From an uncultured Clostridia bacterium (GTDB lineage Bacteria; Bacillota; Clostridia; Christensenellales; UBA1242): a stretch of DNA of 64,000 nucleotides. Each line of letters begins with the position of its first letter. Position 1 is the stretch's first letter. The notes below the pieces were generated by a model. It was not told where the DNA came from. It saw only the letters and a list, made by a program, of their open reading frames with translations, and searched no databases. A program made the translations under genes and the position numbers. The DNA lies in the NCBI GenBank assembly GCA_947630745.1, contig CANRIT010000003.1, forward strand, positions 55,503-119,502. Direction: 5' to 3'. Positions 6,202 through 64,000 of the stretch are shown piece by piece.

Positions 6202-6230
6202 TTGACAAATTGAATTTTATATAATATAAT
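6202..6230 (+). promoter_or_regulatory. Sigma-A-type promoter placed for a leaderless transcript
   Basis: TTGACA at 6202-6207, 17-nt spacer, TATAAT at 6225-6230. ATG at 6237 is only 6 nt after the -10 box. Confidence 0.6.
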
Positions 6231-6236
6231 TGCAAT

Positions 6237-6605
6237 ATGTTTGAAAAATTAAAAAAATATAAATGTGAAGATCTCTATTTTGTAAAACTTGCTCAGGTGG
6301 TTGATATTAAACCGGACGACCACGATTTTGGTAGTGAGCATATCATATTTGAAGAGAAAAAAAAGATTTGGTTTGCCACCAAAGTTGAGTTTTATGACGA
6401 ATTTAAAATTATCTCACTTAACAAAACTTTTAAAAACGACCTTATTGGGGTTAATAGTGTGGGTGATTATTTCGTTTGCTATAGCGATAGTTTAATTGTA
6501 AACCTGCCAAAACTTCGTGGTAAAAAATTAAGTTTAAACGAAATTATTAAATTGGAAAATGACGCCAACAAAACAACCGAGCAACAAACCGAACGCCATG
6601 TTTAA
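6237..6605 (+). CDS. Hypothetical protein (122 aa)
   Basis: ORF with a dedicated promoter. No recognisable family motif. Confidence 0.5.
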   Translation: MFEKLKKYKCEDLYFVKLAQVVDIKPDDHDFGSEHIIFEEKKKIWFATKVEFYDEFKIISLNKTFKNDLIGVNSVGDYFVCYSDSLIVNLPKLRGKKLSLNEIIKLENDANKTTEQQTERHV

Positions 6606-6630
6606 TTTTTTATAAATTTTTTAAAAACTG

Positions 6631-6659
6631 TTGACAAAATTTGGTGGATATGCTAAAAT
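6631..6659 (+). promoter_or_regulatory. Sigma-A-type promoter of rpsU (TTGACA-17-TGcTAAAAT)
   Basis: TTGACA at 6631-6636 and extended -10 at 6651-6659. A leader of about 30 nt carries a GTGGGTGA SD. Confidence 0.7.
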
Positions 6660-6693
6660 AAATTAGTAATTTACATTAAAAGTGGGTGATTAA

Positions 6694-6882
6694 ATGACTA
6701 CTGTACGCTGTGGAGAAAATGAGTCGGTAGAAAGCGCATTAAAGCGTTTCAAACGCAAATGCCAAAAAGACGGCATCATTGGCGACCTTAAAAAGAAAAC
6801 TGAATATGTAAAGCCAAGCGTTCGCCGTAAAGAGAAATCTAAGGCAGCTCGCAAGCGTGCTATGAAACGTAGCCGTTATTAA
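6694..6882 (+). CDS. rpsU: 30S ribosomal protein S21
   Basis: 62 aa, ALKRFKRKCQKDGI...KPSVRRKEKSKAARKR, typical S21 sequence. Confidence 0.95.
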   Translation: MTTVRCGENESVESALKRFKRKCQKDGIIGDLKKKTEYVKPSVRRKEKSKAARKRAMKRSRY

Positions 6883-6926
6883 ACACTGGCTTTGCTGGTG
6901 TTTTTTCTTATTTTTAAGGGGGTTGT

Positions 6927-7490
6927 ATGAAAGTTTATGTGTGTGCAAGCAAGCATTATTCGTCCGATAAATCAATAAACGCATATGCAAAAAAATTGGG
7001 CGAGATATTGGGCAAAAATCCAAACATAACCTATGTTCAAAACGGCACAACAACCGGGCTGTGCGGGCTAATTTTAAGCGAATATTTAAAATACAGCAAG
7101 GATGTGCAGTTTTACATCGCGGATGCGTACGAATTAAGTTCGATTAAAGACATGCTTAGTGAAGAAAATTTCCATTGCGAAGTGTATAAAAGCGAAGCCG
7201 AACGCCTAAACCAGATTGCAAGTTGTGACATGGTTTTGGTGTTGCCGGGCGAACTTGACACGCTTTTGGAGTTTTTGTATTGCAATGTAACCAAATCTTC
7301 GCGTGAACACAATCCAAAAATTGGGTTTATCAACATAAACGGCTTTTTTGACGGCTTTTTGCAGCAGATTAGCACAATAGAAAAGCTTATAAAATCGCCC
7401 GACAAAGTCCCTTATCACGTGTTTGACAAAAGCGAGTTTGCAAAACTTATTTCGGAAGAAAATATCACAAAAAACAAGCCAAATATTTAA
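6927..7490 (+). CDS. LOG/TIGR00730-like Rossmann-fold protein (divergent)
   Basis: 187 aa. LPGELDTLLE sits where LOG proteins carry PGGxGTxxE. Overall layout resembles the lysine-decarboxylase-like/LOG family but the motif is degenerate. Confidence 0.45.
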   Translation: MKVYVCASKHYSSDKSINAYAKKLGEILGKNPNITYVQNGTTTGLCGLILSEYLKYSKDVQFYIADAYELSSIKDMLSEENFHCEVYKSEAERLNQIASCDMVLVLPGELDTLLEFLYCNVTKSSREHNPKIGFININGFFDGFLQQISTIEKLIKSPDKVPYHVFDKSEFAKLISEENITKNKPNI

Positions 7491-7497
7491 AAATATT

Positions 7498-7525
7498 TTG
7501 ATTAAAAAAATAATTTTGGTATAAT
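7498..7525 (+). promoter_or_regulatory. Promoter placed for leaderless pcrA mRNA (TTGATT-16-TGgTATAAT)
   Basis: TTGATT at 7498-7503, TGGTATAAT at 7517-7525. ATG 7532 is 6 nt after the -10 box with no SD. Confidence 0.6.
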
Positions 7526-7531
7526 TATATT

Positions 7532-9724
7532 ATGGATTACAAATCACTGCTTAACGAAGAACAATACGCTGCTGTAAAGTGTGCGTCTGGTCCAGTTTTG
7601 GTTAGTGCGGGTGCGGGGAGTGGCAAAACAAGGTTGCTTACTTACCGCATCGCTTATTTAATAACCGAATGTGGCGTGCCGGCACACAAAATTTTGGCAA
7701 TCACTTTCACAAACAAGGCAACGGGCGAAATGAAGGATAGAATAACCAAGGTTGCTCCGGATGGCGACTTGGTTACTGTTTGCACATTTCACAGTTTTTG
7801 CGCGCGCATGCTTAGAAGTTACGCAAGTTTTTTGCCAAATTACCGTGAAAACTTTACCATTTATAGCGAGCAAGACACGGCAAAAATTTTTAAGGACATT
7901 TTTAAAACCCTAAAAATTGAAGACGAAAGCACAAAAAGCAATTTCAAAAACAATCTGTCGGTTATAAAAAACGACAATATGACAATTGATGAGTATTGCA
8001 ACATAAATCGTTATTCGCGCGACATTGGCGAGTTTAAGCAATTTTACCTTATGTATCAAGACGAGCTGAAAAAGAACAACGCCATGGATTTTGACGATTT
8101 GCTTATAAATTTTTACAACTTAATTTCGTCAAACCAGCAAGTGCTTGACAGTATCCAAGCCAAATACACGCATTTTAGTGTGGACGAATTTCAAGACACA
8201 AACAAATTGCAGTACGACATTGTCAAACTTTTGGCAAGCAAAACGCACAATCTGCTGATTGTTGGGGACGAAGACCAGTCAATTTATGGTTGGCGTGGGG
8301 CAAACATCGCAAACATATTCAATTTTACCAAAGATTTCCCCGAGGCGCAGGTGTTTAAGCTTGAACAGAATTATCGCAGCACCAAAAAGATACTTGACCG
8401 CGCAAACGCAATAATAAAAAACAACCGCAATCGGCTTAACAAGCGGTTGTACACGCAAAATGACGATGGCAGAGATGTTGAATATTATCCCGCGTATAAC
8501 GAAACGGAAGAGGCGGATTTTGTGGTCTCCAACATCATTTCCAAGCATAACGGCGGAGTGCCATACAACGAAATGGCAATTTTGATGCGGCTAAATGCAC
8601 TGTCCCGCGCGTTTGAAGAAAAGTTGTTGGCTTACAACATCCCGCACATCATGTACAACGGCTTTAAGTTTTTTGAGCGCGCCGAGATAAAAAATGTGCT
8701 TGCATACCTTACCGTGCTAACAAATCCAACGGACGATATAAGTTTTATGCGGATTATCAACTTTCCTAAGCGCGGCATAGGTGACACAAGCATACAAAAT
8801 TTGCAGCAGATTGCTAGCGGGCTTAAAACCAGTCTATTTAATGTGGTTTTAAATTACGAACAACACAATTTTAAATCCGCGCTGGCAAGCAAGTTGAAAG
8901 AGCTTAAAACGCTGCTTGTGGATTTAACGCAAAAAATGGGTGAAATGAATATGTATGACTTCTTCACCTACATGTTAAGGGAAAGCAAAATCACATCCAC
9001 CTTTGACCTGGATAACGAGCAAGAATACGAACGCTATTTAAACATAAACTCGCTGTCAAATTCGGTTAAAGAGTACGCGGAAAACAACCCAACAAGCACA
9101 ATTGTGGACTATCTGCAATCGGTCACCCTGTCAAGCAACATGGACGAAGATGACGGCAAGGGTGTGGTTATTGCCACTGTGCATGGTGCCAAGGGGCTGG
9201 AATTTAACACTGTGTTTGTTGTTGGGTGCGAAGAAGGCATTTTCCCAATTTCGCGTGACGACAACAACGATTTGGAAGAAGAACGCCGCCTTATGTATGT
9301 TGCCATAACGCGCGCGCAAAAAGAGTTGTATCTAACCAGCAGTTCGCAACGTTTTATGTATGGCAAAACTGAGTACAGTCCAAAATCGCGCTTTTTGTAC
9401 GAGCTTGATTTGGTTAAGGATAGAAAAATAAATAGAAGTGCAAATTCATATAATACAAATTATAGAGGAGGAGATATGAACAAATTACAATCAAACAATC
9501 ATCAAACTTTCAACTACACTTTCAGCAAAAATACGGTTGAAAAAAAGGAGATAGATTATTCCAAAATTAAATTGGGTGCGCGTGTTACTCACCCTAAATT
9601 TGGCGATGGAGTTATTTCTGAAATTACACCAAACAGCAGCAACCATGCTGTTAAAATAAAGTTTGATTCGGTGGGCGAAAAAATGCTTAGTCTAGAATAC
9701 GCCCCAATTGAATTTAAAGACTAA
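7532..9724 (+). CDS. pcrA: ATP-dependent DNA helicase PcrA (UvrD family)
   Basis: Walker A GAGSGKTR, DEFQDT, QNYRS, VHGAKGLEF, VAITRA motifs. C-terminal Tudor-like HPKFGDGVI. 730 aa. pcrA-ligA synteny. Confidence 0.92.
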   Translation: MDYKSLLNEEQYAAVKCASGPVLVSAGAGSGKTRLLTYRIAYLITECGVPAHKILAITFTNKATGEMKDRITKVAPDGDLVTVCTFHSFCARMLRSYASFLPNYRENFTIYSEQDTAKIFKDIFKTLKIEDESTKSNFKNNLSVIKNDNMTIDEYCNINRYSRDIGEFKQFYLMYQDELKKNNAMDFDDLLINFYNLISSNQQVLDSIQAKYTHFSVDEFQDTNKLQYDIVKLLASKTHNLLIVGDEDQSIYGWRGANIANIFNFTKDFPEAQVFKLEQNYRSTKKILDRANAIIKNNRNRLNKRLYTQNDDGRDVEYYPAYNETEEADFVVSNIISKHNGGVPYNEMAILMRLNALSRAFEEKLLAYNIPHIMYNGFKFFERAEIKNVLAYLTVLTNPTDDISFMRIINFPKRGIGDTSIQNLQQIASGLKTSLFNVVLNYEQHNFKSALASKLKELKTLLVDLTQKMGEMNMYDFFTYMLRESKITSTFDLDNEQEYERYLNINSLSNSVKEYAENNPTSTIVDYLQSVTLSSNMDEDDGKGVVIATVHGAKGLEFNTVFVVGCEEGIFPISRDDNNDLEEERRLMYVAITRAQKELYLTSSSQRFMYGKTEYSPKSRFLYELDLVKDRKINRSANSYNTNYRGGDMNKLQSNNHQTFNYTFSKNTVEKKEIDYSKIKLGARVTHPKFGDGVISEITPNSSNHAVKIKFDSVGEKMLSLEYAPIEFKD

Positions 9725-15873: not shown

Positions 15874-16047
15874 AAGAAAAAATTTGCTATTATTTTAGCG
15901 AATTTTTTTAATATTTTTTCGCCACGAATTAACAATTTTTGCTTTTTACTATTAAAATTTTAAAAATTTGCAACATTTTTTGTTAAAAAGCGCAATTTTT
16001 ATCTAATTCATTTTGATTTTATTGCATTTTTGTAGTAAATTAGTTAT

Positions 16048-17712
16048 ATGGAAGTGGAAAATAAAAAACAAGAAAACATCCTTAAACGCTGGTATAAATT
16101 GTGCCAGCCAAACAAATTTGATTGGGCAATGCAAATCATTACATATTCGCTATATGCAATAATAAACGCGCTTATGGCGATTTTTGCCGCAAAAACAATA
16201 AATTGCTTGTACAATTCGGATTTTAGTGGAGCATTCTTTTGGTTGGCAGTTGAATTTTTGGACATCTTGGTGCGCAACGTGGTGTATCATTTGGAGTATT
16301 ACTATTACGGCAAGGTGTATAGCAAAATAAACCGAACGCTGTGCAGCAAAATCTACGACAAAATTATGTCGGTCTCCAACACGGAAATCAAAAAGTTTTC
16401 GCCAGAAAAAATTATAAGCATCGCGCAAAGCAACACCAGCTATGCGTGCGAATTTCCAGATTATGTTGCATCAATGGTGTCAAGGGTGGTGTTTGTAATT
16501 GTGTCGATTGTTGCCGTGTTTTCAACAAGCTGGTTTGCGGGCATAATTATTGCGCTGCTTGGTGTGGTTGACTTTTTTGTCTATCGCGCGGCACACAAAA
16601 AACTTGGCTATCACCTTAAACGCCGTTTTGAAGCGCAGGATGAAAGATTTAGGGAATATTCTCGCATTATAGGTGCAAAAGAGGTTATAAGCGAATTTGG
16701 CGTGCAAGACGAATATAAGCAAAAAATTTTAAAACAAGTCGACAAATACAACGATGAGTATTCCAAATATTACATGACATATTCAGCCAAAGAAAACCTT
16801 TATTATGTGGTGTGGAATGCGGTGGTGTATGCAATAACTGCCGTGCTTATATTTTTGGTTTCCAAAAACATGTTTGACATTGCGCTATACCTAATTGTTG
16901 TGCCATATTTAACCAATTGCACCACTAAATTAAACGAACTTTACGACAAGTTTGGCTCGGTAGAAAACACGCGCGTGGATGTGGATAGGTTAAATTTAAT
17001 TCTGTCGCTTAACGATAAAGAACTTATAAGTTATGGCAATGTAAACAAAGAGTGTGAGGGTTACAACTTGGGTTTTGCTTCTGTTTCGTGCAAGGATAAA
17101 GATAACCCAACAATCAAACTTGTCAACAGCAATGTCGCCTTTAAAATGAACGCAATCAACATTGTGCGCGGCGAACGCGATAGCGGCAAGCGCATAGTGT
17201 TTGATATTTTGCGCAGGCGGATAAAACCAGATGACGGCGTGGTGGTGCTGGATAATTTGAATTTGTTTGATTATTCGCCAAAAATTTTTAAAAACCACAT
17301 CGATTATTGTTCGCAGCACCCAATGTTTATCAGCGGCACAATTATGGAAAATTTGCAGGCTACAAAGCGCGATTTGTCCAAACTTAACGACCTTATTGAA
17401 GAACTTAATTTAAATCAAGTTATTGCCCGCCAGAAAAACGGGCTTAACACCCAAATTGACGATGTAAGTAACCCAGAAGACCGCTTTTGGATTGGCATAA
17501 TCCGCGCGGCGCTAAGCAAGTGCAAGATTTTGATGATTTACGAGTATCCAAACACAGACAACCCAGAATTCCGCGAAATATTCCAAAACATGATACAGAC
17601 ATGCGAAACAGACAAGCGCACACTTATATTATTTACTCACAACACTCAGCACGACAACCTTGCCGATGCCGTGTTTGAAGTTAAAAAAGGCAAAATAAAA
17701 AAGGTTAAATAG
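16048..17712 (+). CDS. ABC exporter-type protein (TMD-NBD fusion) with degenerate nucleotide-binding motifs
   Basis: Six-helix ABC exporter TMD. The NBD has GERDSGKR for Walker A, VSNPEDRF for LSGGQ, and ILMIYEYP for Walker B. The Q-loop Q and H-loop H are retained. Confidence 0.7.
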   Translation: MEVENKKQENILKRWYKLCQPNKFDWAMQIITYSLYAIINALMAIFAAKTINCLYNSDFSGAFFWLAVEFLDILVRNVVYHLEYYYYGKVYSKINRTLCSKIYDKIMSVSNTEIKKFSPEKIISIAQSNTSYACEFPDYVASMVSRVVFVIVSIVAVFSTSWFAGIIIALLGVVDFFVYRAAHKKLGYHLKRRFEAQDERFREYSRIIGAKEVISEFGVQDEYKQKILKQVDKYNDEYSKYYMTYSAKENLYYVVWNAVVYAITAVLIFLVSKNMFDIALYLIVVPYLTNCTTKLNELYDKFGSVENTRVDVDRLNLILSLNDKELISYGNVNKECEGYNLGFASVSCKDKDNPTIKLVNSNVAFKMNAINIVRGERDSGKRIVFDILRRRIKPDDGVVVLDNLNLFDYSPKIFKNHIDYCSQHPMFISGTIMENLQATKRDLSKLNDLIEELNLNQVIARQKNGLNTQIDDVSNPEDRFWIGIIRAALSKCKILMIYEYPNTDNPEFREIFQNMIQTCETDKRTLILFTHNTQHDNLADAVFEVKKGKIKKVK

Positions 17713-19677: not shown

Positions 19678-19706
19678 TTGATTTATTTTTGTTTTGGTGG
19701 TATAAT
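19678..19706 (+). promoter_or_regulatory. Promoter placed for leaderless plsY mRNA (TTGATT-17-TGgTATAAT)
   Basis: TTGATT at 19678-83, TGGTATAAT at 19698-19706. ATG 19713 is 6 nt after the -10 box. Confidence 0.6.
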
Positions 19707-19712
19707 TACAAT

Positions 19713-20372
19713 ATGATTTATTTGTTGTACTATATTTTGCTTGCTGTGTTCAGTTATTTTATTGGAAATATTAACTTTGGCAGAGTTTTTGGCAAAATTA
19801 ATCATAAAGATGTAACCAAGTCGGCTAGTGGCAATCCCGGCACACTAAACACTTGGCGTGTGTGCGGATTTTGGCCCGGCGTTTTTACTTTTGTTTGTGA
19901 TATGCTTAAAGGCTTAATTGTATGTTTAGCGGCCTATTTTATATTTAAATACAACGGCGGCAATCCAGAAATTGCAATCTATGTCGCAGGGTTTAGCGTG
20001 GTGCTTGGGCACAACTATCCAGTTATATTCTGTTTTAAAGGTGGCAAAGGGGTGGCAACCAGCATTGGCGTGTTTTTGGTGGCAAACTGGTGGGTTAGCC
20101 TAATTGTTTTTGTTATTATGATTGTTGGTATGCTGTTTGTTAAATACGCTTCAATTTTCACCATTGGCTTTGTTATCACAATGTCGATTGTTGAACTTTG
20201 CCTGTGCAATCCAGCAAACTGGGTTAATTACATTTTAATATCCTTGCTTTTAACCGTGGTTTTAATTTCCCACCATGCAAACATCCACCGCTTGCTTACT
20301 GGTAAAGAGAATAAAACCGAACTTTGGGCGATGGTAAAAGGCATATTTAAAAAGAAAGATAAAACCAACTAA
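19713..20372 (+). CDS. plsY: Glycerol-3-phosphate acyltransferase PlsY
   Basis: GNINFGRVFGK...SGNPGTLNTWRV matches the PlsY signature. Multi-pass membrane protein. ATG 19713 is preferred to the track TTG 19689, which lies upstream of the -10 box. Confidence 0.85.
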   Translation: MIYLLYYILLAVFSYFIGNINFGRVFGKINHKDVTKSASGNPGTLNTWRVCGFWPGVFTFVCDMLKGLIVCLAAYFIFKYNGGNPEIAIYVAGFSVVLGHNYPVIFCFKGGKGVATSIGVFLVANWWVSLIVFVIMIVGMLFVKYASIFTIGFVITMSIVELCLCNPANWVNYILISLLLTVVLISHHANIHRLLTGKENKTELWAMVKGIFKKKDKTN

Positions 20373-20388: not shown

Positions 20389-20416
20389 TTGAAAAGTTTT
20401 TATTTTGTTATATAAT
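20389..20416 (+). promoter_or_regulatory. Promoter placed for leaderless tatD mRNA
   Basis: TTGAAA at 20389-94, 16-nt spacer, TATAAT at 20411-16. ATG 20424 is 7 nt downstream. Confidence 0.5.
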
Positions 20417-20423
20417 ATTGTTT

Positions 20424-21179
20424 ATGATTGATACTCATTGCCATTTGAATGATGAAAAATATGAAAATGTTGACGAAATTGTAAACAACTATCTTTCCGC
20501 GGGGGTGGATAAGGTGGTTTGTGCAAGTTCTAGTTTTTCCGCAAGCATAAAGGCGGGCGAGATTGCTGCAAAATATCCGTCAGTTTATTACACGGTTGGC
20601 ATTCATCCAGACGAAGTTGATGAGTTTGATATTGACAGGCTTGAAAGTTTGGTTAAAAAAGCCAGCAACAAACTGGTTGCAATTGGGGAAATTGGGCTTG
20701 ACTATTTCCATAATAAAGAAAACAAGTCCGAGCAAATACACGCATTTATAAGCCAAATTGAGCTTGCAAACAAATACAAACTGCCAATTGTTATCCATTG
20801 CCGTGAAGCATATGGCGACACGCTTGATGTGCTTAAACAACATCCGCCAAAATATGGCGCGGTTATGCACTGTTACAGCGGAAGTTTGGAGTACGCGCGG
20901 CAAATTATTGCGCTTGGATACAAACTTTCATTTACTGGCAATGTAACCTTTAAAAACGCAAAAAACATAAAAGAAGTGGCGCAAAATATCCCAGAAGATA
21001 GTTTCTTTTTGGAAACGGACAGCCCATATCTTACCCCCGAGCCAAATAGGGGAAAGCGTAACGAGCCGAAAAATGTTTTCTTTGTGGCAGCAGTTATTGC
21101 CGACTTGCGCGGAATAAGTAAAAATAAACTTAGTGAGATTACTGATAAAAACGCAATCGAATTTTACAAATTTAAATAA
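20424..21179 (+). CDS. tatD: TatD-family metal-dependent hydrolase/DNase
   Basis: MIDTHCHL start, IGEIGLDY, VIHCR, ETDSPYL motifs. 251 aa from ATG 20424. Confidence 0.85.
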   Translation: MIDTHCHLNDEKYENVDEIVNNYLSAGVDKVVCASSSFSASIKAGEIAAKYPSVYYTVGIHPDEVDEFDIDRLESLVKKASNKLVAIGEIGLDYFHNKENKSEQIHAFISQIELANKYKLPIVIHCREAYGDTLDVLKQHPPKYGAVMHCYSGSLEYARQIIALGYKLSFTGNVTFKNAKNIKEVAQNIPEDSFFLETDSPYLTPEPNRGKRNEPKNVFFVAAVIADLRGISKNKLSEITDKNAIEFYKFK

Positions 21180-33535: not shown

Positions 33536-33564
33536 TTGCCAAAAATTTAAACTTGTGTTAAAAT
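33536..33564 (+). promoter_or_regulatory. Promoter placed for a leaderless transcript (TTGCCA-17-TGtTAAAAT)
   Basis: TTGCCA at 33536-41, TGTTAAAAT at 33556-64. ATG 33571 is 6 nt after the -10 box. Confidence 0.55.
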
Positions 33565-39140: not shown

Positions 39141-39169
39141 TTGCAAAAATGGATTTTGTTTGCTAAAAT
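39141..39169 (+). promoter_or_regulatory. Promoter placed for a leaderless transcript (TTGCAA-17-TGcTAAAAT)
   Basis: TTGCAA at 39141-46, TGCTAAAAT at 39161-69. ATG 39177 is 7 nt after the -10 box. Confidence 0.55.
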
Positions 39170-39176
39170 ATAGATA

Positions 39177-40517
39177 ATGTTGGCATTAAAAATTGTTTTA
39201 GGTATAATATTTGTAATTTTGTATGTTGTTATGATGAGCATAATGATTATTTTTGAACGCGACAAGCCCAAAAATATCATTTTGTGGACAATAGCATTTT
39301 TCTTTTTAAGTTTGGTGGGGTATGTGTGGTACACAGTTGCAAAAATTGTGCATTTCAACAAACAACACTCGCTTGTGGTCAAAGATTGGGAAGATGGGGT
39401 ATACAACAATTTGGTTAAGGAAAATTTGACCGACATTGGCATTGTTGCGGACGACAACGGCTTGTATCAATTCAACCAAATGGCGTACGGCAGCAAACTT
39501 ATAGTAAATAATCAAATTGAAATGTACACGGCGGCGGACAAGTTTAAATCCGCGCTTATTAAAGACTTGCAATCGGCAAAAGAGCGCATTATCCTTGAAC
39601 TTTCCCGCATCAACGCCCACGATTTTGCCACTATCGCAGACGCAATTTGCAAAAAGGCGCAACAAGGGGTGCTTGTGAAGTTTGTTTATGACAAATCAAT
39701 TGGCATCCGCCTTAAAAAACAGCTTAAAAACGCGGGTGTAAAGTTGCACAAATTCAGCAAATATCACACGCTTAACAACACTTTTTCCAACATGCGCAAC
39801 CTTATAACTATTGACGGCAAAATTTCATACATGGCAAATTTGGATGTAAAAAATCGTCAACTTAAACAAAATGCGGATGTTTTAGATGTGTTTATGCGCC
39901 TAACGGGTGAAGTGGTGCAAGAAATTAATTTATTAACCAACAAAGACACCACTTTTGCCAGCGGCAAATTTTTGCCGTACTGCCAAACCATAGCAGAAAC
40001 AAAGCAGCAAACCACAATGCAGTTTGTTGCAAACTCTTCGTCTGCGGATTTGGAACTTTTGATAATAAAAGCCATAACCACAGCCAAAAAGTCAATTGTG
40101 TTGCAGTTGGATGAATTTATCCCAACCGAAAGCATAATTTCGCTGCTGCGCTTTGCCATAAATTCGGGCATAGAAGTCAAGCTTATGGTGCCAATAAAAA
40201 TTATCCGCCCGTCCACATATTACGCAACGCGCGCGTACGCAAAACAGCTGGCACTTTATGGCGCAAATGTGTATTTGTACGATGGTTTTATCCGCTACAA
40301 TTCAATTGTCGTGGACGATAACTATGTAATTTACGGCTCGTTTAGGCTGGATAGGCAACACATCAACACCGCACTTCAAAGCCTTGTTATTGTGGAAGAT
40401 GAAAAAATTGTCGACCAGTTTATTAAGCAATTTGATTTGGGGGTGGAAAACAGCTTCCGCATCAGCAACGCGCGCTATATGCTTATTCAAGAAAGATTTT
40501 TCAAAAACTTTGTGTAA
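39177..40517 (+). CDS. Cardiolipin synthase-like phospholipase D family protein with both HKD motifs substituted
   Basis: Two N-terminal TM helices and two PLD domains. Motif 1 reads NMRNLITIDGK (expected HxKxxxxDG). Motif 2 reads GFIRYNSIVVDD (expected HxKxxxxD). Confidence 0.7.
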   Translation: MLALKIVLGIIFVILYVVMMSIMIIFERDKPKNIILWTIAFFFLSLVGYVWYTVAKIVHFNKQHSLVVKDWEDGVYNNLVKENLTDIGIVADDNGLYQFNQMAYGSKLIVNNQIEMYTAADKFKSALIKDLQSAKERIILELSRINAHDFATIADAICKKAQQGVLVKFVYDKSIGIRLKKQLKNAGVKLHKFSKYHTLNNTFSNMRNLITIDGKISYMANLDVKNRQLKQNADVLDVFMRLTGEVVQEINLLTNKDTTFASGKFLPYCQTIAETKQQTTMQFVANSSSADLELLIIKAITTAKKSIVLQLDEFIPTESIISLLRFAINSGIEVKLMVPIKIIRPSTYYATRAYAKQLALYGANVYLYDGFIRYNSIVVDDNYVIYGSFRLDRQHINTALQSLVIVEDEKIVDQFIKQFDLGVENSFRISNARYMLIQERFFKNFV

Positions 40518-40960: not shown

Positions 40961-40985
40961 GTCAACTTTGGTTGACTATTTTTTT
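40961..40985 (+). terminator. Rho-independent terminator
   Basis: GTCAAC-tttg-GTTGAC followed by TATTTTTTT. It overlaps the -35 box of the next promoter. Confidence 0.7.
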
Positions 40986-41000
40986 AAATTTTGCTACAAT
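40972..41000 (+). promoter_or_regulatory. Promoter placed for a leaderless transcript (TTGACT-17-TGcTACAAT)
   Basis: TTGACT at 40972-77, TGCTACAAT at 40992-41000. ATG 41007 is 6 nt after the -10 box. Confidence 0.6.
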
Positions 41001-41006
41001 TTTTAT

Positions 41007-41855
41007 ATGGAAAAAGAAATATTTGGTGTGGCTGGCGTGCCTACCAACTACAAGGGCAAGTTTAAAGATTTGTTCGCTTGGCTAAAAGGCATGGGTTTAA
41101 ACGCGTTTGAAATTCAATGCACATATGGCTTTAAAATAAGCGAGGATAGGCAGCAAATTATCCGCGAACACAATAATAATGGCGTGTTTTTCAGCATTCA
41201 TGCGCCGTACTACATAAATTTGGGCAGTTTAAATAAGGCGGTTGTTGACCGAAGTTTTAGCAATATGAAAGAAGGAATAAGCCTTGCCAAAAGCCTAAAT
41301 ATCACTCGCATAATTTTCCACCCGGGCGGCGGGCATGAAAATACGCCTGAAGGTAGGGTTAAGGCAATAAATCAACTTGTTGACGCGGTTAACAAACTTA
41401 CCAGCGAAATAGATATGGGCGAGGTGCGCTTGTACCCAGAAATTGGCGGGAAAACCGCAAGTTTGGGTAGTCTTGACGAGATTATTGACATATGCAAACG
41501 CTGCAAATATTGCTATCCTTGCATTGATATTGCCCATCTGCACGCACGCGAAATTGGCAGCATAAACACAAAGCAAGACATTTTAGATAAACTTAACAAA
41601 ATCAAGTCCGCATTGCCAGATAAGTTTGATAAAATTCATTTTCACGCCTACACAATTGAATACGGCGACAAAGGCGAAATTAAACATCTGTATCATGGTA
41701 AAAACATGGCGGATGGGCGAGTGGGCAAACCAAACCTAGATGATTTTATTTCAAGCTTAAAAGAACTTAAACTTTCGCCTTGGGTGATAAGCGAAGCGCT
41801 CGACAGCCAAGAACTAGGCGCAAAATACATGCACGATTTATATTTAAAAAATTAG
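41007..41855 (+). CDS. Endonuclease IV-like TIM-barrel protein (AP endonuclease family 2)
   Basis: SIHAPYYINLGS, IFHPGG, YPEIGGKTASLGS, CIDIAHLHA and HFHAY occur in the order of endonuclease IV metal-ligand motifs. The start is moved to ATG 41007. Confidence 0.6.
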   Translation: MEKEIFGVAGVPTNYKGKFKDLFAWLKGMGLNAFEIQCTYGFKISEDRQQIIREHNNNGVFFSIHAPYYINLGSLNKAVVDRSFSNMKEGISLAKSLNITRIIFHPGGGHENTPEGRVKAINQLVDAVNKLTSEIDMGEVRLYPEIGGKTASLGSLDEIIDICKRCKYCYPCIDIAHLHAREIGSINTKQDILDKLNKIKSALPDKFDKIHFHAYTIEYGDKGEIKHLYHGKNMADGRVGKPNLDDFISSLKELKLSPWVISEALDSQELGAKYMHDLYLKN

Positions 41856-45078: not shown

Positions 45079-45107
45079 TTGTAAAATAAAATGATATGTG
45101 GTAAAAT
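45079..45107 (+). promoter_or_regulatory. Promoter placed for a leaderless transcript (TTGTAA-17-TGgTAAAAT)
   Basis: TTGTAA at 45079-84, TGGTAAAAT at 45099-107. ATG 45114 is 6 nt after the -10 box. Confidence 0.55.
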
Positions 45108-45113
45108 ACAATT

Positions 45114-46145
45114 ATGATTGAAAAATGCAAAAATTGTGGCGGAAAATTGTTTTTTAGCCCAAAAGATAAAGGGGTAAAGTGCGCGAATTGTGCGTCAGTT
45201 TTTCCTATTAAATATAATTATAATTTCACAAAAAAGCCGTTTGAACAGAATGTCGAGCCCAAGGTGGACAAACTTGCCAGCAGTCTAAAAAGCATAAAAT
45301 GCAAAAACTGCGGGGCAAACATAATGCTTAACAAACAGCAAATTCAAGCAAAGTGTCCATACTGCGGCAGCACCACGCTTATCGAAACAAAAACTGGAAA
45401 ATTGATGTACATTGACAGCCTTATTCCGTTTGCAATGACTAAAGAAGAGGCAATCGCCAAATTTAAAGCCAACTTGCTTAAAAAATTTTACGCAAACAAG
45501 CGCGTTTTTGCCAAGTTTAAGGAAGAAGATGTGGTTGGCGCGTACATAAACGCATTTGTGTTTGACCTTATTGCCGATTGCAGTTACGCGGGCGTGTTAA
45601 GTTACACGGTTGAGCACCGCGACAAAGAAGGGCGCACCCAAACCATAACCAAATATAAGGACGTTGCAGGCATACACAACAAGCGCATAAACAACTTGAC
45701 CATTGAATCCGACTCGTACCTTACGCAAGGCGACATGATGCAAATTTTGCCTTTTGATTACGCCTCAGCCGTAACCTTTGAAGACGATTTTTTGCAAGGC
45801 TATGTTATGGAGTATAAGGATAGGTTGTTTAACGATTGCTTTGCCAACGCCGAGCGGATTGTTAAGCGCATTGTTCAGCGCGAAATTTTGCAAAAATACA
45901 ATTGCCAAGATGTTGTAACTTTAACAATAAATGTGTCTTACCCTAAAAAAGAGTACAACTATTGCTTGCTGCCCGTTTACTTTTTCAATTCAACCTACAA
46001 AAACAAGCACTATCGCGTGCTGCTAAACGGGCAAACTGGCAAATTTGGCAAATTCCCAAAAGACGGCTTGCGCATTTTCTTAACCGCACTTTTTGCAAGC
46101 GTGCTTATCGTTGGCATAATATTCCTAATTTGGTTTTTGGTGTAA
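45114..46145 (+). CDS. Double zinc-ribbon protein with C-terminal membrane anchor (343 aa)
   Basis: CKNCGG..CANC and CKNCGA..CPYCGS CxxC pairs, C-terminal TM LRIFLTALFASVLIVGIIFLIWFLV. No family assigned. Confidence 0.6.
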   Translation: MIEKCKNCGGKLFFSPKDKGVKCANCASVFPIKYNYNFTKKPFEQNVEPKVDKLASSLKSIKCKNCGANIMLNKQQIQAKCPYCGSTTLIETKTGKLMYIDSLIPFAMTKEEAIAKFKANLLKKFYANKRVFAKFKEEDVVGAYINAFVFDLIADCSYAGVLSYTVEHRDKEGRTQTITKYKDVAGIHNKRINNLTIESDSYLTQGDMMQILPFDYASAVTFEDDFLQGYVMEYKDRLFNDCFANAERIVKRIVQREILQKYNCQDVVTLTINVSYPKKEYNYCLLPVYFFNSTYKNKHYRVLLNGQTGKFGKFPKDGLRIFLTALFASVLIVGIIFLIWFLV

Positions 46146-52047: not shown

Positions 52048-52124
52048 ATGTGGTTTTTATGTAGTTTTGTGTCTAAAAAGTGCTAAAAATATATATTGTT
52101 GCGGGCAAAATAATACAATGTTTT

Positions 52125-52763
52125 ATGGCAAGGTTTAAAAAAAAGTGGATGGCAATTTTTGTTTTTTTGTGTGCGGTTTTGCTTGCATACTACTTTTTTG
52201 TAATTAGCCCGGTTGTAAAAACCTATTCAGCGGCCAAAACCAAGCAGTTGACCGAAAACGCCATGAATTTAGCGGTAAGCACGGTAATAAACCGCACAAT
52301 AAGTTATGATAGTTTGATTGATATAAACTACGCGCCAAATGGCGAAATTACCTCATTTTCCGCCAACCAGTACGAAATAAACAGCATTGCGCGCGAAATT
52401 GTAAACGAAGGCCAAACGCTTATGCGCACGCTTGGGGAGGATGGGCTAAATTTAAACATTGGCACTTTTTCTGGCATGCCGTTTTTAATCGGTCGCGGAC
52501 CGGAAATTAAACTTAAACTTGTGCCAATTGGCATTGTTGCAAGTCGTTTTGACAGCGAGTTTAGCGCGGTGGGCATAAACATGACCAAACACACGCTTTA
52601 TCTATATTTGGATGTGCATGTAAACATTGCGCTGCCTATAAAATCGTACGAGGTGTATTCTACAAGTCAAGTTATGCTTGCCGAAAGTATAATTATTGGT
52701 AAAGTACCAGAAGTGTATTTAAACGGGGGCAGTTTGGGTGAAAGCCTAAATTTAGTGCCATAA
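52125..52763 (+). CDS. yunB: Sporulation protein YunB
   Basis: N-terminal TM, then the YunB-type domain (EINSIAREI..., GTFSGMPFLIGRGPEIKLKLVPIG, LYLDVHVNI). ATG 52125 preferred. Confidence 0.8.
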   Translation: MARFKKKWMAIFVFLCAVLLAYYFFVISPVVKTYSAAKTKQLTENAMNLAVSTVINRTISYDSLIDINYAPNGEITSFSANQYEINSIAREIVNEGQTLMRTLGEDGLNLNIGTFSGMPFLIGRGPEIKLKLVPIGIVASRFDSEFSAVGINMTKHTLYLYLDVHVNIALPIKSYEVYSTSQVMLAESIIIGKVPEVYLNGGSLGESLNLVP

Positions 52764-52825: not shown

Positions 52826-52854
52826 TTGTAAAAATATTTGATTTATGGTATACT
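52826..52854 (+). promoter_or_regulatory. Promoter placed for a leaderless transcript (TTGTAA-17-TGgTATACT)
   Basis: TTGTAA at 52826-31, TGGTATACT at 52846-54. ATG 52861 is 6 nt after the -10 box. Confidence 0.55.
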
Positions 52855-52860
52855 AATTGC

Positions 52861-53967
52861 ATGCTATATTTTGACAATGCGTCAACCACAAAAATTAGTG
52901 AGGCTGCTTTAAATAGTTATGTTGAAGCAAGTGAACTTTTTTACAATCCAAGCGCGCTGTATGCTGAGGCGGGTAAGACAAAACAACTGCTGGAAAATGC
53001 GCGCAGTCAAATTTTAAAGCGACTTAAAGCACCCGCAAAGTCAAATTTTATATTTACTGGTTCGGCAACCGAGGCAAACAATGCGGTTATAAACGCGTGT
53101 GTTGCGCGCAAAGATAAAACCTACCTTATTTCAGCGGGCGAGCATAGTTCGGTGTATGCGGCGGCAAAACAGAAAAAGGACGAAGGATATAATGTCAAAT
53201 TTGTTCCGCTGTTAAAAAATGGCGGGGTAGATAAGCAAAAGTTGTTTCAAATGCTTGACGATTCGGTTGCGTTTGTGTCAATAATTCATGTTAGCAACGA
53301 AACGGGCGCAATAAACGACATTGCGGACATTTGCGCACAGATAAAACAATTTAACCCAAACATACTTTTTCACAGCGATGGGGTGCAAGCGGTTGGCAAA
53401 ATGGATGTAAATTTGTCTAAACTTGGGGTGGATTTTTACACCATTTCCGCGCACAAAATATACGGACCAAAAGGGGTGGCGGGTTTGTACATTAAAAACA
53501 CCAACCGATTTAAACCGCTTTTGTTTGGTGGCGGGCAAGAGTTTAATCTTAGGTCGGGCACAGAAAATTTACCCGGGATTTGTGGATTTGTAACCGCGCT
53601 TAAAAATGTCGAAATTCATGATTTTTCTAAGCATAAACAAGCGCTTTTAAATGAAATTAATGAGCCACACATTTTGGTTAGTGACGCTAACTGCGAGGAT
53701 AATATAATATCCATTTGCTTTGAAGGTATGCGCGGTGAAACCATACTTCACATGTTGGAAGAACAAGGGTTTTTAATCGGCACAGGCTCGGCATGTAACA
53801 GCCATGCGGCAGGCAATCGCGTGCTGGAACAGATTGTGCCAAAAAACTATCTATCTGGCGCGGTGCGTATAAGTTTTGGTGCGGAAATTTCGCTTGATGA
53901 CTGCACAAATTTAGGCAAGACGCTAGATGGCGCGGTTAAAACCTACAAATTAAAAACAAAAAGATAA
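52861..53967 (+). CDS. Cysteine desulfurase (class V aminotransferase, NifS/IscS-like), partner of ThiI
   Basis: PLP-lysine motif SAHKIYGPKG, catalytic GSACNS, 368 aa. Immediately upstream of thiI. Confidence 0.88.
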   Translation: MLYFDNASTTKISEAALNSYVEASELFYNPSALYAEAGKTKQLLENARSQILKRLKAPAKSNFIFTGSATEANNAVINACVARKDKTYLISAGEHSSVYAAAKQKKDEGYNVKFVPLLKNGGVDKQKLFQMLDDSVAFVSIIHVSNETGAINDIADICAQIKQFNPNILFHSDGVQAVGKMDVNLSKLGVDFYTISAHKIYGPKGVAGLYIKNTNRFKPLLFGGGQEFNLRSGTENLPGICGFVTALKNVEIHDFSKHKQALLNEINEPHILVSDANCEDNIISICFEGMRGETILHMLEEQGFLIGTGSACNSHAAGNRVLEQIVPKNYLSGAVRISFGAEISLDDCTNLGKTLDGAVKTYKLKTKR

Positions 53968-59581: not shown

Positions 59582-59583
59582 CT

Positions 59584-60371: not shown

Positions 60372-60380
60372 TGTTATAAT
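60372..60380 (+). promoter_or_regulatory. Extended -10 element (TGTTATAAT) placed for leaderless comEC mRNA
   Basis: GTG 60387 lies 6 nt after the -10 box. No SD, and no good -35 at 17 nt. Confidence 0.45.
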
Positions 60381-60386
60381 TTAAGC

Positions 60387-61904
60387 GTGAAACGACATTG
60401 GTTTAATTTTAGGGCGCTTTGTTTGATATTTATCTTCCTACTTTTAGGGAGTTTGTTTGGCTTTTACATATACACAAAATTTGTTGGCTGCCTAATTGTT
60501 GCGCTGATAATTTTTGTTGGTTCGCTGGTTGTGGCGATAGTCAACAAAAAGGCATCAAATTTTTTAATACCAATAATCTGCTTTGTCATCGGGTTTTGTT
60601 GTTACAGCGTGGCAATTGACAATTTCAACAAAGGTCAAGATAAAATTTTGCCAACCACGGTAAGCGCGCGCATCTACAATGTTGGGCTAACTGATGGCAA
60701 AACGCTTAGTTTGTGTGTTGACAGCCTAAAATTTGACGGCAGAAAAGTTGATGGCAGGGCGCGGCTTTACATTGTTGACTACCAAAACCGATTTGATGAT
60801 TTTTCAATTGGCACAACAATAGATTTTGAGCCGTACAGCGTTGATTTGGTCAATTTGTTGGTGGGCGACATTCCGTCCGCATACTATTACAAAAACGATT
60901 TTAAATACCAAATTTACACTGGATATTCGCTTGTCAACATTACGGGCAATGACAAAACGTTTGCGGAAAAACTTCAACTTAAAATAAAGGAAAACTTGTC
61001 AAACGGCTTGTCAAACGAAAATGTGGAAATTGCATACGCTGCCATGTTTGGCGACAAATCGCTTATGCCAAGCGAGCAGTATTCAAATTACCAACTGTCG
61101 GGCGTGGCGCACATTTTAGCTGTGTCTGGCTTGCATGTAAGCATAATTGTTGGCGTGCTGTACGCTTTCTTTAAACTTATACATGTAAAAGGTTGGTGGA
61201 GATTTGCAATTTTAACCGCATTTTTGCTGTTTTACATGTATTTGTGCAGCTATTCAGTGTCGGTTGTGCGCGCCTCGATAATGTCGATAATCATGTTGCT
61301 TGCTCCGCTTATTGGGCGAAGATACGATACGCTATCCGCCTTGTCAGTTGCTGGCATAGTCATCTTTTGCACCAATCCGCTTTGTGTTTACGATGTTGGC
61401 TTTTTGATGAGCTTTTCGTGCGTGCTTGGCATTGCGTTTATGTTTAAGCCAATTGCAAGCGCAATATCCAAAACCCACCTTCCAAAATGGCTAGGGGATA
61501 GCGTGGCAATTTCAACTGCCACCATGGTATCCGTACTTATAGTTATGGCGTATTTCTTTGGCAGAATAAACATTGTGTCCGTATTTGCCAACATTTTGAT
61601 TTTGCCAATGTTTTCGCTTGCCTTTTCAATTGTTTTTGTGCTTGGATTTTTGTCGCTTATTGCACCGTTTATAACATACATGCTGCTGCCGCTAAACTTT
61701 TTGTTTAACATAATCAACAGCATGACATTTGTTATTGCAAATTTAAAGTACGTTAACTACAACACAGCCAACCTAAATTACTATGTTTGCCTTATATATT
61801 TCTTTTTATTGATGATTTTGGGCAGAATTTGCACGGCAAAACGGGGTGAAAAAGTGGTAACATCCCTTACAATAGTTGCACTTTTGATGGCATGTTTGGT
61901 ATAA
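60387..61904 (+). CDS. comEC: ComEC/Rec2-family DNA internalization channel protein (no C-terminal metallo-beta-lactamase domain)
   Basis: Polytopic membrane protein with SGVAHILAVSGLHVSII competence-domain motif. 505 aa. comEC-holA synteny. Confidence 0.8.
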   Translation: MKRHWFNFRALCLIFIFLLLGSLFGFYIYTKFVGCLIVALIIFVGSLVVAIVNKKASNFLIPIICFVIGFCCYSVAIDNFNKGQDKILPTTVSARIYNVGLTDGKTLSLCVDSLKFDGRKVDGRARLYIVDYQNRFDDFSIGTTIDFEPYSVDLVNLLVGDIPSAYYYKNDFKYQIYTGYSLVNITGNDKTFAEKLQLKIKENLSNGLSNENVEIAYAAMFGDKSLMPSEQYSNYQLSGVAHILAVSGLHVSIIVGVLYAFFKLIHVKGWWRFAILTAFLLFYMYLCSYSVSVVRASIMSIIMLLAPLIGRRYDTLSALSVAGIVIFCTNPLCVYDVGFLMSFSCVLGIAFMFKPIASAISKTHLPKWLGDSVAISTATMVSVLIVMAYFFGRINIVSVFANILILPMFSLAFSIVFVLGFLSLIAPFITYMLLPLNFLFNIINSMTFVIANLKYVNYNTANLNYYVCLIYFFLLMILGRICTAKRGEKVVTSLTIVALLMACLV

Positions 61905-61905
61905 T
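61876..61905 (+). promoter_or_regulatory. Promoter inside the comEC 3' end, placed for leaderless holA mRNA (TTGCAC-18-TGgTATAAT)
   Basis: TTGCAC at 61876-81, TGGTATAAT at 61897-905, overlapping the comEC stop. ATG 61912 is 6 nt after the -10 box. Confidence 0.5.
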
Positions 61906-61911
61906 ATAGGT

Positions 61912-62820
61912 ATGAAGTTTATTGAAATAAACAAAAAATTGAAAGAGAAGATAGAAAATGTTTACAACCTTGTTGGCGAGGATGATTTTTTAATTAAAAA
62001 TGCCATTTTAAACATCAAGGCAGCCACCATAACTCAGTTTGAAGAATTTAATTACCAAGTTTTGCAAAACGATTGTTCAAAACAGAGTTTTTTGGCGGCT
62101 TTGTCCACCTTGCCAATGGCAAATGATTATAGGCTGGTGGTGATATATAATCCAACCGCTGAGCAAGTTAAATTGATTGGCGATTTTGAATTTGATTCGT
62201 CCGTGGTGCTTGTAACTGTAAATGCGGACAAGCTTAAAATTGGCGAAGTTGTGGATTGTTCAAAACTGGATAGAATCGACATCAACCGCTATGTGCTAAA
62301 CTATCTAAAAAAGGTGAATTTAAGCATAGAAGAGCAAGCGTTGGACTATTTAATTGATGCGTGTTCGTCAAACATGAGCAGAATTTCAAACGAACTTAAC
62401 AAAATTGTCAGCTACTGCGCGGACGAGCAGATTATTAAGTTAAATGATGTGGTAAACCTTGTTTCAAGCGCAAGCGAGTATGTTATCTATATGCTGACCA
62501 GCGCGATAGATGAAAAAAACTATCAAAAATTTCAGCAGATTGTAAACGAGATGGGCAAAACCAACACGGCAAACGAAATATTTTCCTACCTTGGGCGGTA
62601 TTTTAGGCGAATGCAGTATGTGTCAATCAACAAAAACGATGATGAAGTGGCAAAATATTTGGCAATAAAACCATACGCGGTTAAGATGTCGCGCAAGGAA
62701 GTTAATAAAAACGGAATTAAGTACTACATAAACTTGTACCAAAAATATATTGACTTGGACTATAAAATTAAGTCGGGCAAAATATCGGCGATAAATGCGC
62801 TGTATAGTTTGGTTTTTTAG
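61912..62820 (+). CDS. holA: DNA polymerase III delta subunit
   Basis: 302 aa. Position directly after comEC as in Bacillota (comEC-holA). Delta-like N-terminal domain pattern, though sequence conservation is weak. Confidence 0.7.
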   Translation: MKFIEINKKLKEKIENVYNLVGEDDFLIKNAILNIKAATITQFEEFNYQVLQNDCSKQSFLAALSTLPMANDYRLVVIYNPTAEQVKLIGDFEFDSSVVLVTVNADKLKIGEVVDCSKLDRIDINRYVLNYLKKVNLSIEEQALDYLIDACSSNMSRISNELNKIVSYCADEQIIKLNDVVNLVSSASEYVIYMLTSAIDEKNYQKFQQIVNEMGKTNTANEIFSYLGRYFRRMQYVSINKNDDEVAKYLAIKPYAVKMSRKEVNKNGIKYYINLYQKYIDLDYKIKSGKISAINALYSLVF

Positions 62821-62828
62821 GTTGAATT

Positions 62829-63482
62829 ATGTTTTATCCAAGTGAAATTATCCGATGCAAGCGAAGGACAATAAGCCTAATTATCAATTCGGCCGGCGAA
62901 CTTATTGTGCGCGCACCGTTGCGGGCAAGCGATAGGGCGATTTTTAATTTTGTTAACGAAAAGCAGGCGTGGATTGAAAAAAATGTCAACAAAATAATAT
63001 CAAAACACATCGTTCCGCTAAAAGTGGTGGACGACGAGGTGTTTTATATTTTGGACACGCTTGTCACCATAAAATTGTCAACAAGCGGCAGCGTAAAATT
63101 GGTTGGCGACAAAATTTTTGTGCCAGCAAACAATGCAAAACAAAAACTCATTGCCTTTTTAAAGCGTTTTGCAAAACAATATCTAACGGGTAGGGTAAAT
63201 GAAATTGCAGCCAAGTGCGGGTTTAAATTTAATGGGATAAAAATTTCGTCCGCGCACACAAATTGGGGTTCGTGTTCAAGCAAAAACCACCTTAATTTTA
63301 CCTACAAACTTATGCTTTGCCCGTCCGATGTGGTGGACTATATTATTATCCACGAACTAAGCCACACCATAGTTAAAAACCACAGCAGCAAATTTTACAG
63401 CCTTGTTAGCCAGTACGACCCAAACTATAAACTGCACAAAAAATGGCTTAAAGACAACAGCGCAATAATAGATTTAATCTAA
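62829..63482 (+). CDS. YgjP/DUF45-type zinc metallohydrolase (M48-like)
   Basis: C-terminal WGSCS...HLNFTYKL...IIHELSHTIVKNHSSKFY with an HExxH motif. 217 aa. Confidence 0.8.
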   Translation: MFYPSEIIRCKRRTISLIINSAGELIVRAPLRASDRAIFNFVNEKQAWIEKNVNKIISKHIVPLKVVDDEVFYILDTLVTIKLSTSGSVKLVGDKIFVPANNAKQKLIAFLKRFAKQYLTGRVNEIAAKCGFKFNGIKISSAHTNWGSCSSKNHLNFTYKLMLCPSDVVDYIIIHELSHTIVKNHSSKFYSLVSQYDPNYKLHKKWLKDNSAIIDLI

Positions 63483-63498
63483 AATTTACCATTTTTGT

Positions 63499-63527
63499 TT
63501 GACAATTTGGTTTATAATACTTACAAT
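63499..63527 (+). promoter_or_regulatory. Sigma-A promoter (TTGACA-17-TACAAT) placed 6 nt before a GTG
   Basis: TTGACA at 63499-504, TACAAT at 63522-27, GTG at 63534. Confidence 0.55.
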
Positions 63528-63533
63528 ATTAGT

Positions 63534-64000
63534 GTGAAAAATTCTAGCACACAAAACAAACAATATCAAAAACCAAGCCTTAAAATGTATTTAAAAAAAT
63601 TTAAAGGCCCAATTTTTGCGTACATTTTGGTGTCTATTATTTACACAATCATTGGCGTTTTTAACACCATACTTGCCGCAGAAGGCATTGTTAAAATTAC
63701 CGAACACTTGTATGTGCAAGCGGTTTACACCTTTGTTTTGCTTATCGTTTTGTCGCTGATTGAACGGCTTATGTGGTGGTTAACTCACTTTATTTACAAC
63801 AAATACGCAAACAAAATGATGGCAAGTTTAAATATCGACCTAGCAAAACAAGCTTTTAAGTTAACCAGTTCAACATACGAATCGCATGATACTGGCACAT
63901 TCGTTCAAAGGATAGTTAACGACCCGCAACAGGTGGTGGATAATCTTGCCACAATAATTGATGAAATTGCCGAGGTGCTTTCTGTTTTAATTATTGCGCT
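63534..64000 (+). CDS. ABC exporter transmembrane domain, 3' end cut by window edge
   Basis: Frame open to the window end. Helices IFAYILVSIIYTIIGVF and VYTFVLLIVLSLIERL, then HDTGTFVQRIVNDPQQV typical of the ABC exporter intracellular loop. The start is uncertain (GTG 63534 or ATG 63585). Confidence 0.7.
   Translation, partial: MKNSSTQNKQYQKPSLKMYLKKFKGPIFAYILVSIIYTIIGVFNTILAAEGIVKITEHLYVQAVYTFVLLIVLSLIERLMWWLTHFIYNKYANKMMASLNIDLAKQAFKLTSSTYESHDTGTFVQRIVNDPQQVVDNLATIIDEIAEVLSVLIIA

Follow-up and report, generated by a model that had tools for sequence, protein, structure and literature searches.

Predicted leaderless genes with a promoter -10 element 6-7 nt before the start codon in a 64-kb window of a low-GC Christensenellales genome

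We analysed a 64-kb stretch of DNA (64,000 nucleotides (nt), 37 % GC; hereafter the window) from an uncultured Clostridia bacterium of the Christensenellales (GenBank assembly GCA_947630745.1, contig CANRIT010000003.1, positions 55,503 to 119,502 of the forward strand), with a focus on twelve genes that have a promoter-type -10 element just before the start codon and that an initial annotation of the window had listed as apparently leaderless. The results on this genome come from this one window and no wider sequence of it, and the upstream regions inspected were the 60 nt before each listed start. All twelve genes lie on the forward (+) strand, and for each we give the gene and, in double-dotted coordinates, the span from promoter to start codon.

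The first of the twelve is an orphan gene (6237-6605), which is preceded by TTGACA, 17 nt, TATAAT (6225-6230) and 6 nt before its ATG (6202..6239), and the second on the list is pcrA (7532-9724), where TTGATT, 16 nt, TGG-TATAAT (7520-7525) and 6 nt lead to the ATG (7498..7534). The next two lie side by side, plsY (19713-20372) with TTGATT, 17 nt, TGG-TATAAT, 6 nt and ATG (19678..19715), and tatD (20424-21179) with TTGAAA, 16 nt, TATAAT, 7 nt and ATG (20389..20426). The gene for a FAD (flavin adenine dinucleotide) flavoprotein (33571-34788) shows TTGCCA, 17 nt, TGT-TAAAAT, 6 nt and ATG (33536..33573), the cardiolipin-synthase-like gene (cls; 39177-40517) TTGCAA, 17 nt, TGC-TAAAAT, 7 nt and ATG (39141..39179), and the AP-endonuclease-2/nfo-like gene (41007-41855) TTGACT, 17 nt, TGC-TACAAT, 6 nt and ATG (40972..41009). 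Farther along we find a zinc-ribbon protein gene (45114-46145) with TTGTAA, 17 nt, TGG-TAAAAT, 6 nt and ATG (45079..45116), and a cysteine desulfurase gene (52861-53967) with TTGTAA, 17 nt, TGG-TATACT, 6 nt and ATG (52826..52863). The last three are comEC (60387-61904), with TGT-TATAAT, 6 nt and GTG and no good -35 (60375..60389), holA (61912-62820), with TTGCAC, 18 nt, TGG-TATAAT (61900-61905), 6 nt and ATG (61876..61914), and an ABC transporter gene with a possible GTG start at 63534, preceded by TTGACA, 17 nt, TACAAT and 6 nt (63499..63536), for which an ATG at 63585 is the alternative.

Across these starts the -10 hexamer ends 6 nt before the ATG or GTG in ten and 7 nt before it in two (20424 and 39177), and it reads TATAAT six times, TAAAAT three times, TACAAT twice and TATACT once. 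No Shine-Dalgarno (SD) sequence of at least 4 nt at a workable distance was found at any of the twelve (SD score 0 for each); the G-runs upstream of 33571 and 61912 were not counted as such because they end 0-1 nt from the ATG, which is too close. The claim of at least twelve SD-less genes with a -10 at 6-7 nt is thereby borne out, and the accompanying descriptions, of an element that is usually extended and in most cases has a TTGNNN -35 box 16-18 nt upstream, hold as well, with the TG extension present in 9/12 promoters and the -35 box in 11/12, the exception being comEC (60387) with its extended -10 alone. This architecture accounts for 11-12 of the 61 window genes (about 1 in 5), for about 25 % of the window genes that open a transcription unit, and for 11 of the 28 genes in which a strong -10 can be recognised within 60 nt.

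We evaluated the spacing by several counts, which cover the window and 34 related loci, not the whole genome. When, after every TGNTAWAAT motif on both strands, we recorded the offsets of ATG or GTG codons opening an open reading frame (ORF) of at least 80 codons, 38 motifs were found in the window, with an ORF-opening start at 6 nt for seven and at 7 nt for one, and with none at 0-5 or 8-14 nt for any of the 38. An ORF-based count, which takes the first two ATG or GTG codons of each long, non-overlapped ORF and contains no hand-picked starts, gave a strong -10 at a distance (d) of 6 nt in ten and of 7 nt in two of the 60 window ORFs, zero at d=0-5 and at d=8-9, and a second, broad mode from about 15 to 27 nt. 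Applied to 28 related loci (366 ORFs), this count gave 14 at d=6 and 4 at d=7 over a near-empty background, whereas 52 outgroup loci of Clostridia (643 ORFs) yielded one at d=6 and two at d=7, with no peak. The distribution of distances between -10 and start, which had been proposed genome-wide as a check of the pattern and was obtained here for the window and related loci only, has a peak at 6-7 nt that is absent in the outgroup. Among 61 curated starts, 11 had a strong -10 at 6-7 nt, compared with 0.44 on average and at most 4 across 2000 shuffles of the upstream sequence, and requiring a TTG at -35 as well left 10 observed versus 0.026 expected. The spacing pattern is real and far above chance. 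Offset counts after any TANNNT were swamped by coding background and were replaced by the long-ORF-opening counts and ORF profiles, and a classifier that admitted any start in the first third of an ORF was noisy and was narrowed to the first two ATG or GTG codons. The upstream regions are 74 % A+T, and a generic promoter scan, which returned 71 matches and was barely above its shuffle expectation of 52, was used only to cross-check coordinates and terminators.

Genes with a conventional start are also abundant, with more than 30 window genes carrying an SD of at least 5 nt matching AGGAGG, and the two kinds of start are separated by where the promoter lies. Sorting the 28 genes that have a strong -10 within 60 nt by the position of this element puts 11 at 6-7 nt, 12 at 15-27 nt with an SD after it, and 4 farther away, and none of the 28 falls at 8-14 nt. 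The 28th gene is 63534, with a strong TATAAT at 15 nt that lacks a -35 partner, and its promoter is likely the weaker TACAAT at 6 nt. The earlier description of the window as bimodal, as opposed to one of general SD loss, agrees with this split, which is real. The empty zone makes sense because a leader of 2-8 nt cannot fit an SD plus its spacer; a leader of that length also interferes with leaderless initiation. Predicted leaders of the SD-led genes are often minimal, at about 9-21 nt, and with a strong -10 just 15-27 nt from the ATG, transcription would set in at or beside the SD. Such short-leader SD-led starts include 38519(-), 40568, 43949(-), 49503 and 51521, of which 43949(-) reads TATAAT-ATATTA-GAGGTTTAT-ATG. 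The structure of the 5'-terminal coding sequence was no weaker in the leaderless genes, with a mean minimum free energy of -1.75 compared with -2.05 kcal/mol for the others (p=0.85). Among the few long leaders in the window is the one upstream of gene 12182-13276, where an S-adenosylmethionine (SAM) riboswitch (Rfam RF00162, 65.5 bits) occupies 12026-12147.

The -10 hexamer of a bacterial promoter spans -12 to -7 and RNA polymerase starts about 7 nt past its last T, and with a gap of 6 nt, +1 would therefore be the A or G that opens the start codon. In the reading that we prefer, ordinary housekeeping-sigma promoters (sigma-A/sigma-70 type), mostly with an extended -10, would be set such that +1 coincides with the first nucleotide of the start codon. 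The mRNA would then carry AUG or GUG at its 5' end, with neither a 5' untranslated region (UTR) nor an SD, and a ribosome carrying initiator tRNA would bind the 5'-terminal start codon directly. Here we infer the transcription start site from the canonical distance between -10 and +1, and the translation step from leaderless translation as established in other bacteria. That the -10-like motif would behave as a promoter is supported by its -35 partner at 16-18 nt, by its TG extension, and by the occurrence of the same motif 15-27 nt upstream of SD-led genes. On this sequence evidence, sigma-A promoters yielding leaderless mRNAs are very probably the best account of the twelve starts, and each part of the initial interpretation that sequence analysis could address held up. 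Weighing against that account, the +1 position is one predicted from promoter geometry, two of the starts are GTG, which is a poor leaderless start codon in E. coli, the genome-wide fraction is uncertain because 64 kb were seen and distant members of the clade have fewer such genes (2/~20), and 7532, 20424, 61912 and 63534 may have leadered transcripts through read-through.

The upstream context bears on this last point. Eleven of the twelve genes have an upstream spacer of at least 41 nt or a divergent neighbour, which fits a first-in-unit position, the exception being holA, where the gap to comEC is 7 nt and the whole promoter lies within the comEC 3' end, its -10 (61900-61905) overlapping the comEC stop codon TAA (61902-61904). 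At four genes an intrinsic terminator stands between the upstream gene and the promoter, namely at 6159-6182 upstream of the orphan 6237, at 33470-33502 upstream of the flavoprotein gene 33571, at 40960-40985 upstream of the nfo-like gene 41007 (here the 3' arm contains the -35) and at 60303-60330 upstream of comEC 60387, and past these terminators only about 45-70 nt remain before the start codon, which is space for a single promoter. The gaps to the co-directional upstream gene are 41 nt for pcrA, 51 nt for tatD, 7 nt for holA and 51 nt for the ABC transporter gene 63534, and no hairpin with a T-run was found in any of these four gaps. Together with the position of the holA -10 inside the end of comEC, this would suit a dual supply in which these four genes are fed to a considerable extent by read-through polycistronic mRNA, translated by termination-reinitiation or SD-independent initiation, and the proximal promoter adds a leaderless fraction. 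We regard such a supply as unlikely, though deserving of serious attention, given that all four genes carry full promoters with a TTG at -35, 16-18 nt spacing and a strong -10, that 10 relatives with unconserved flanks also have the pcrA promoter at the 6-nt spacing, and that gaps of 41-51 nt exceed what simple coupling allows.

The promoters could also be real and the assigned start codons wrong, with translation beginning downstream from leaders that are ordinary or SD-less. This is likely what happens at 31951, where a GTG 6 nt past TGCTATAAT mimics the pattern and an AAGGAG-led ATG follows 21 nt downstream at 31972; we rejected 31951 as a thirteenth leaderless gene, the SD-led ATG at 31972 being the likelier start. 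It is possible at 63534 too, for which the gene caller on an identical short contig (L095, the L-numbers denoting related loci or contigs) chose the ATG equivalent to 63585, and the original list of twelve leaderless starts accordingly stands for the pattern, which is present at all twelve, with the GTG at 63534 left ambiguous. As a general account of the list, displaced starts are very improbable. In alignments with family profiles (NCBIfam/Pfam), protein residue 1 corresponds to profile position 1 both for tatD (TIGR00010) and for the cysteine desulfurase (nifS/iscS profile), residue 6 to position 4 for pcrA, residue 7 to position 5 for plsY (TIGR00023), which favours 19713 over the TTG at 19689, residue 6 to position 5 for cls, and residue 7 to position 1 for the flavoprotein, while residue 52 of the nfo-like protein falls on position 56. 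Homologues of the zinc-ribbon protein are nearly all about 343 amino acids (aa) long, which is consistent with the start at 45114, and in most of the listed genes the reading frame is closed by a stop a few codons before the start (4 codons upstream in the orphan 6237). The next in-frame start codons have no SD and their use would remove conserved N-terminal residues, and orthologues start at the same residue. Profile coordinates, in-frame stops and the length of the zinc-ribbon homologues thus support the predicted positions of the leaderless start codons, and the profile coordinates also support the proposed moves of three starts of the gene track, from 19689, 20385 and 40968 to 19713, 20424 and 41007.

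Weakest is the idea that leadered mRNAs arrive from farther upstream and that the TATAAT-like element is an A/U-rich SD-independent signal, as in group B of the Bacteroidetes, or simply AT-rich intergenic sequence, which the A+T-rich upstream regions and the many chance matches of the generic scan would favour and which we consider scarcely credible in view of a peak limited to 6-7 nt with empty neighbouring positions, the TTGNNN boxes and TG extensions with their excess over shuffled sequence, the terminators directly upstream of four promoters, and the strong AGGAGG SDs elsewhere in the genome, which imply that SD use has not been lost. The hallmarks of group B, a general lack of SDs and an A-rich, non-promoter motif, were not seen in the window.

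PcrA relatives place the source in a Clostridia lineage that several records label 'Candidatus Onthoplasma' or Christensenella and that NCBI taxonomy assigns to Christensenellales; the closest relative in the genome collection is from a bin labelled 'Lapin', and others are from human gut, sheep colon and roe-deer rectum samples. Turning to these relatives, we find the start codons retained, with either TGnTATAAT and 6 nt or an SD in front of them. All 26 pcrA orthologues from metagenome-assembled genomes (MAGs) of the clade keep the start ATG GAT TAC AAA, and 10 of them have TGGTATAAT (or TATACT), 6 nt and ATG, with spacer sequences that are unrelated, while the other 16 rely on a GGAG-type SD, and many of these show a -10 some 20-25 nt upstream. 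Leaderless and SD states are interleaved on a rough PcrA tree, which points to several independent switches. The zinc-ribbon gene retains an extended -10, 6 nt and ATG in 5/5 other genomes (L097 and L099-L102), with spacers that differ and a protein identity of about 50-80 %. For the cysteine desulfurase, for which a metagenome scan yielded three useful loci, TGnTATAAT, 6 nt and ATG are present in 4/5 genomes (L081, L097, L100 and L101), and the gap is 9 nt in L102. The cls orthologue of L100 reads TTGCAA, 17 nt, TATTAT, 8 nt and ATG, and the nfo-like orthologues of L097 and L100, which directly follow cls, begin at the equivalent residue and use AGGAGG. The reverse case is seen for gene 1453, whose L001 orthologue is leaderless in type and whose window copy has a weak SD. 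Density varies within the clade, with the window (12/~60) at the high end and more distant members at about 2/20 in the syntenic region.

Leaderless genes of bacteria have been recognised by a TANNNT signal located about 10-12 nt before the start ('TA-led' genes; Zheng et al. 2011, PMC3160421), with shares of about 19 % in Actinobacteria, about 39 % in Deinococcus-Thermus, and a mean of 4.2 % in Firmicutes, where only Lactobacillales and Mycoplasma were involved (PMC3160421). GeneMarkS-2 assigns genomes whose Pribnow box stands 6-8 nt before the start codon to its 'group C', in which 25-50 % of operons are leaderless (PMC6028130; bioRxiv 10.1101/193490), which comprises 3.4 % of Firmicutes genomes (bioRxiv 10.1101/193490) and whose members with the standard code are nearly all high-GC (bioRxiv 10.1101/2022.07.25.500264). 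The signature of the window agrees with both descriptions, the TANNNT at about 10-12 nt (PMC3160421) and the Pribnow box at 6-8 nt (bioRxiv 10.1101/193490). It shares with the TA-led and group C genomes, which have been mapped experimentally in Mycobacterium, Streptomyces, Corynebacterium and Deinococcus, the SD-less first-in-operon genes that stand beside SD-led ones, and its fraction is similar to that of Actinobacteria when taken as about 20 % of genes (~19 %) and at the bottom of the group C range when taken as about 25 % of unit-first genes. It differs from group C in its host, a sporulation-gene-bearing member of the Clostridia with 37 % GC and the standard code, and its -10 is a full TGnTATAAT with a clear -35, whereas that of high-GC taxa is a degenerate TANNNT. 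Code 4 is found in the Mycoplasma genomes of group C; a reassignment of TGA was rejected for the window, where TGA terminates 3/61 genes and code 11 leaves the ORFs intact.

Closer in sequence are the AT-rich TAtAAT elements with a TG extension about 10-12 nt before the start that were predicted in Lactococcus/Streptococcus, Oenococcus/Leuconostoc and Mycoplasma (PMC3160421), but these belong to Lactobacillales (about 4 % of genes) and Mollicutes, and that survey reported no Clostridia, in contrast to about 20 % in the window. Both the class and the sigma-A consensus TTGACA/TATAAT are shared with solventogenic clostridia (PMC9045289) and Clostridium phytofermentans (PMC5171806). In Clostridia with mapped transcription start sites just 2-4 % of transcripts are leaderless and 5' UTR lengths peak near 32 nt (PMC9045289, PMC5171806), unlike the predicted leaders of 0 nt or about 9-21 nt in the window, and the 'leaderless' genes of C. 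phytofermentans usually retain a ribosome-binding site plus another upstream start site (PMC5171806). The remark in the initial annotation that such initiation is not the textbook picture for Bacillota is fair but needs the context that earlier work already predicts leaderless genes for Lactobacillales and Mycoplasma (PMC3160421) and for 3.4 % of the genomes of Firmicutes (bioRxiv 10.1101/193490). The signature is already known, and is rare in low-GC Bacillota with the standard genetic code; the mechanism is not new, and GeneMarkS-2 already detects the signature. A full-text literature search found no papers linking leaderless initiation to Christensenellales.

Taking these comparisons together, we are inclined, with some reserve, to place the window in a hitherto unrecognised low-GC, endospore-gene-bearing gut clade of Christensenellales ('Candidatus Onthoplasma'-like) that would use leaderless initiation at actinobacterial levels, with promoters collapsed onto the coding regions such that the mRNA would start at the AUG or at the SD, and with -10 and SD swapping repeatedly at the same start codon through indels of about 14-19 nt. 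If true, a lineage of low-GC Clostridia would join the heavy users of leaderless mRNAs. This would be useful for relating leaderless use to genome compaction and for studying how Firmicutes ribosomes handle leaderless mRNAs, and the many natural pairs of one gene and one start codon, leaderless or SD-led, could be compared directly. There is also a practical side, in that SD-based gene callers misplace leaderless starts: for plsY, tatD and the nfo-like gene the window track has TTG starts that stand 24-39 nt upstream of the corrected ones, the L097 call for the zinc-ribbon gene (10001-11083) begins at a TTG 39 nt upstream and runs through its own TGTTATAAT box, giving 360 aa compared with 343-347 aa elsewhere, and the L097 call for cls (6158-7432) is shortened to an internal ATG. 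Without a leaderless-aware model, protein catalogues built from MAGs of this abundant gut clade would give wrong N-termini.

Two candidates were absent from the original list. The ABC transporter gene 16048-17712 is a weaker one, with TTGATT, 17 nt, TAAATT, 6 nt and ATG (16013..16050, +), and its L001 orthologue shows TGCTAAATT, 6 nt and ATG. The other is yunB (52125-52763), which has no SD and may start leaderless behind TACAAT and 5 nt, rather than 6, before its ATG (52114..52127, +); its -35 is not clear, and a terminator lies upstream at 52026-52049. The yunB orthologues in three relatives (L097 16804, L100 16780 and L101 16790) likewise have a -10-like hexamer 5 nt before the ATG, and this sporulation gene may be leaderless and driven by a sporulation sigma factor. 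Orthologues of spoVAC in the same three relatives (L097 14730, L100 14820 and L101 14794) have no SD and share a conserved GATTAAAAT about 25 nt before the ATG; in the window, spoVAC (49503) has an SD preceded by a TATAAT.

Upstream of plsY, a stretch of about 2 kb (17713-19700) holds no convincing protein gene. Pairs of tRNA-Ala and tRNA-Ile are normally found in the 16S-23S spacer, and such a pair, tRNA-Ala(TGC) and tRNA-Ile(GAT), occurs in this stretch at 18940-19201 with no rRNA adjacent.

The gene that begins at the ATG 31972 (31972-33075) encodes 367 aa without a Pfam match and is absent from the syntenic locus L097. In front of it, the spacer between TTGACA (31911-31916) and TGCTATAAT (-10 at 31939-31944) contains a run of 12 C (31922-31933), the sole C or G run of at least 9 in the window, which makes the spacer 22 nt long; 7 C would give 17 nt. 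The tract is possibly an assembly artefact, and its layout looks like that of a slipped-strand, phase-variable promoter for the gene.

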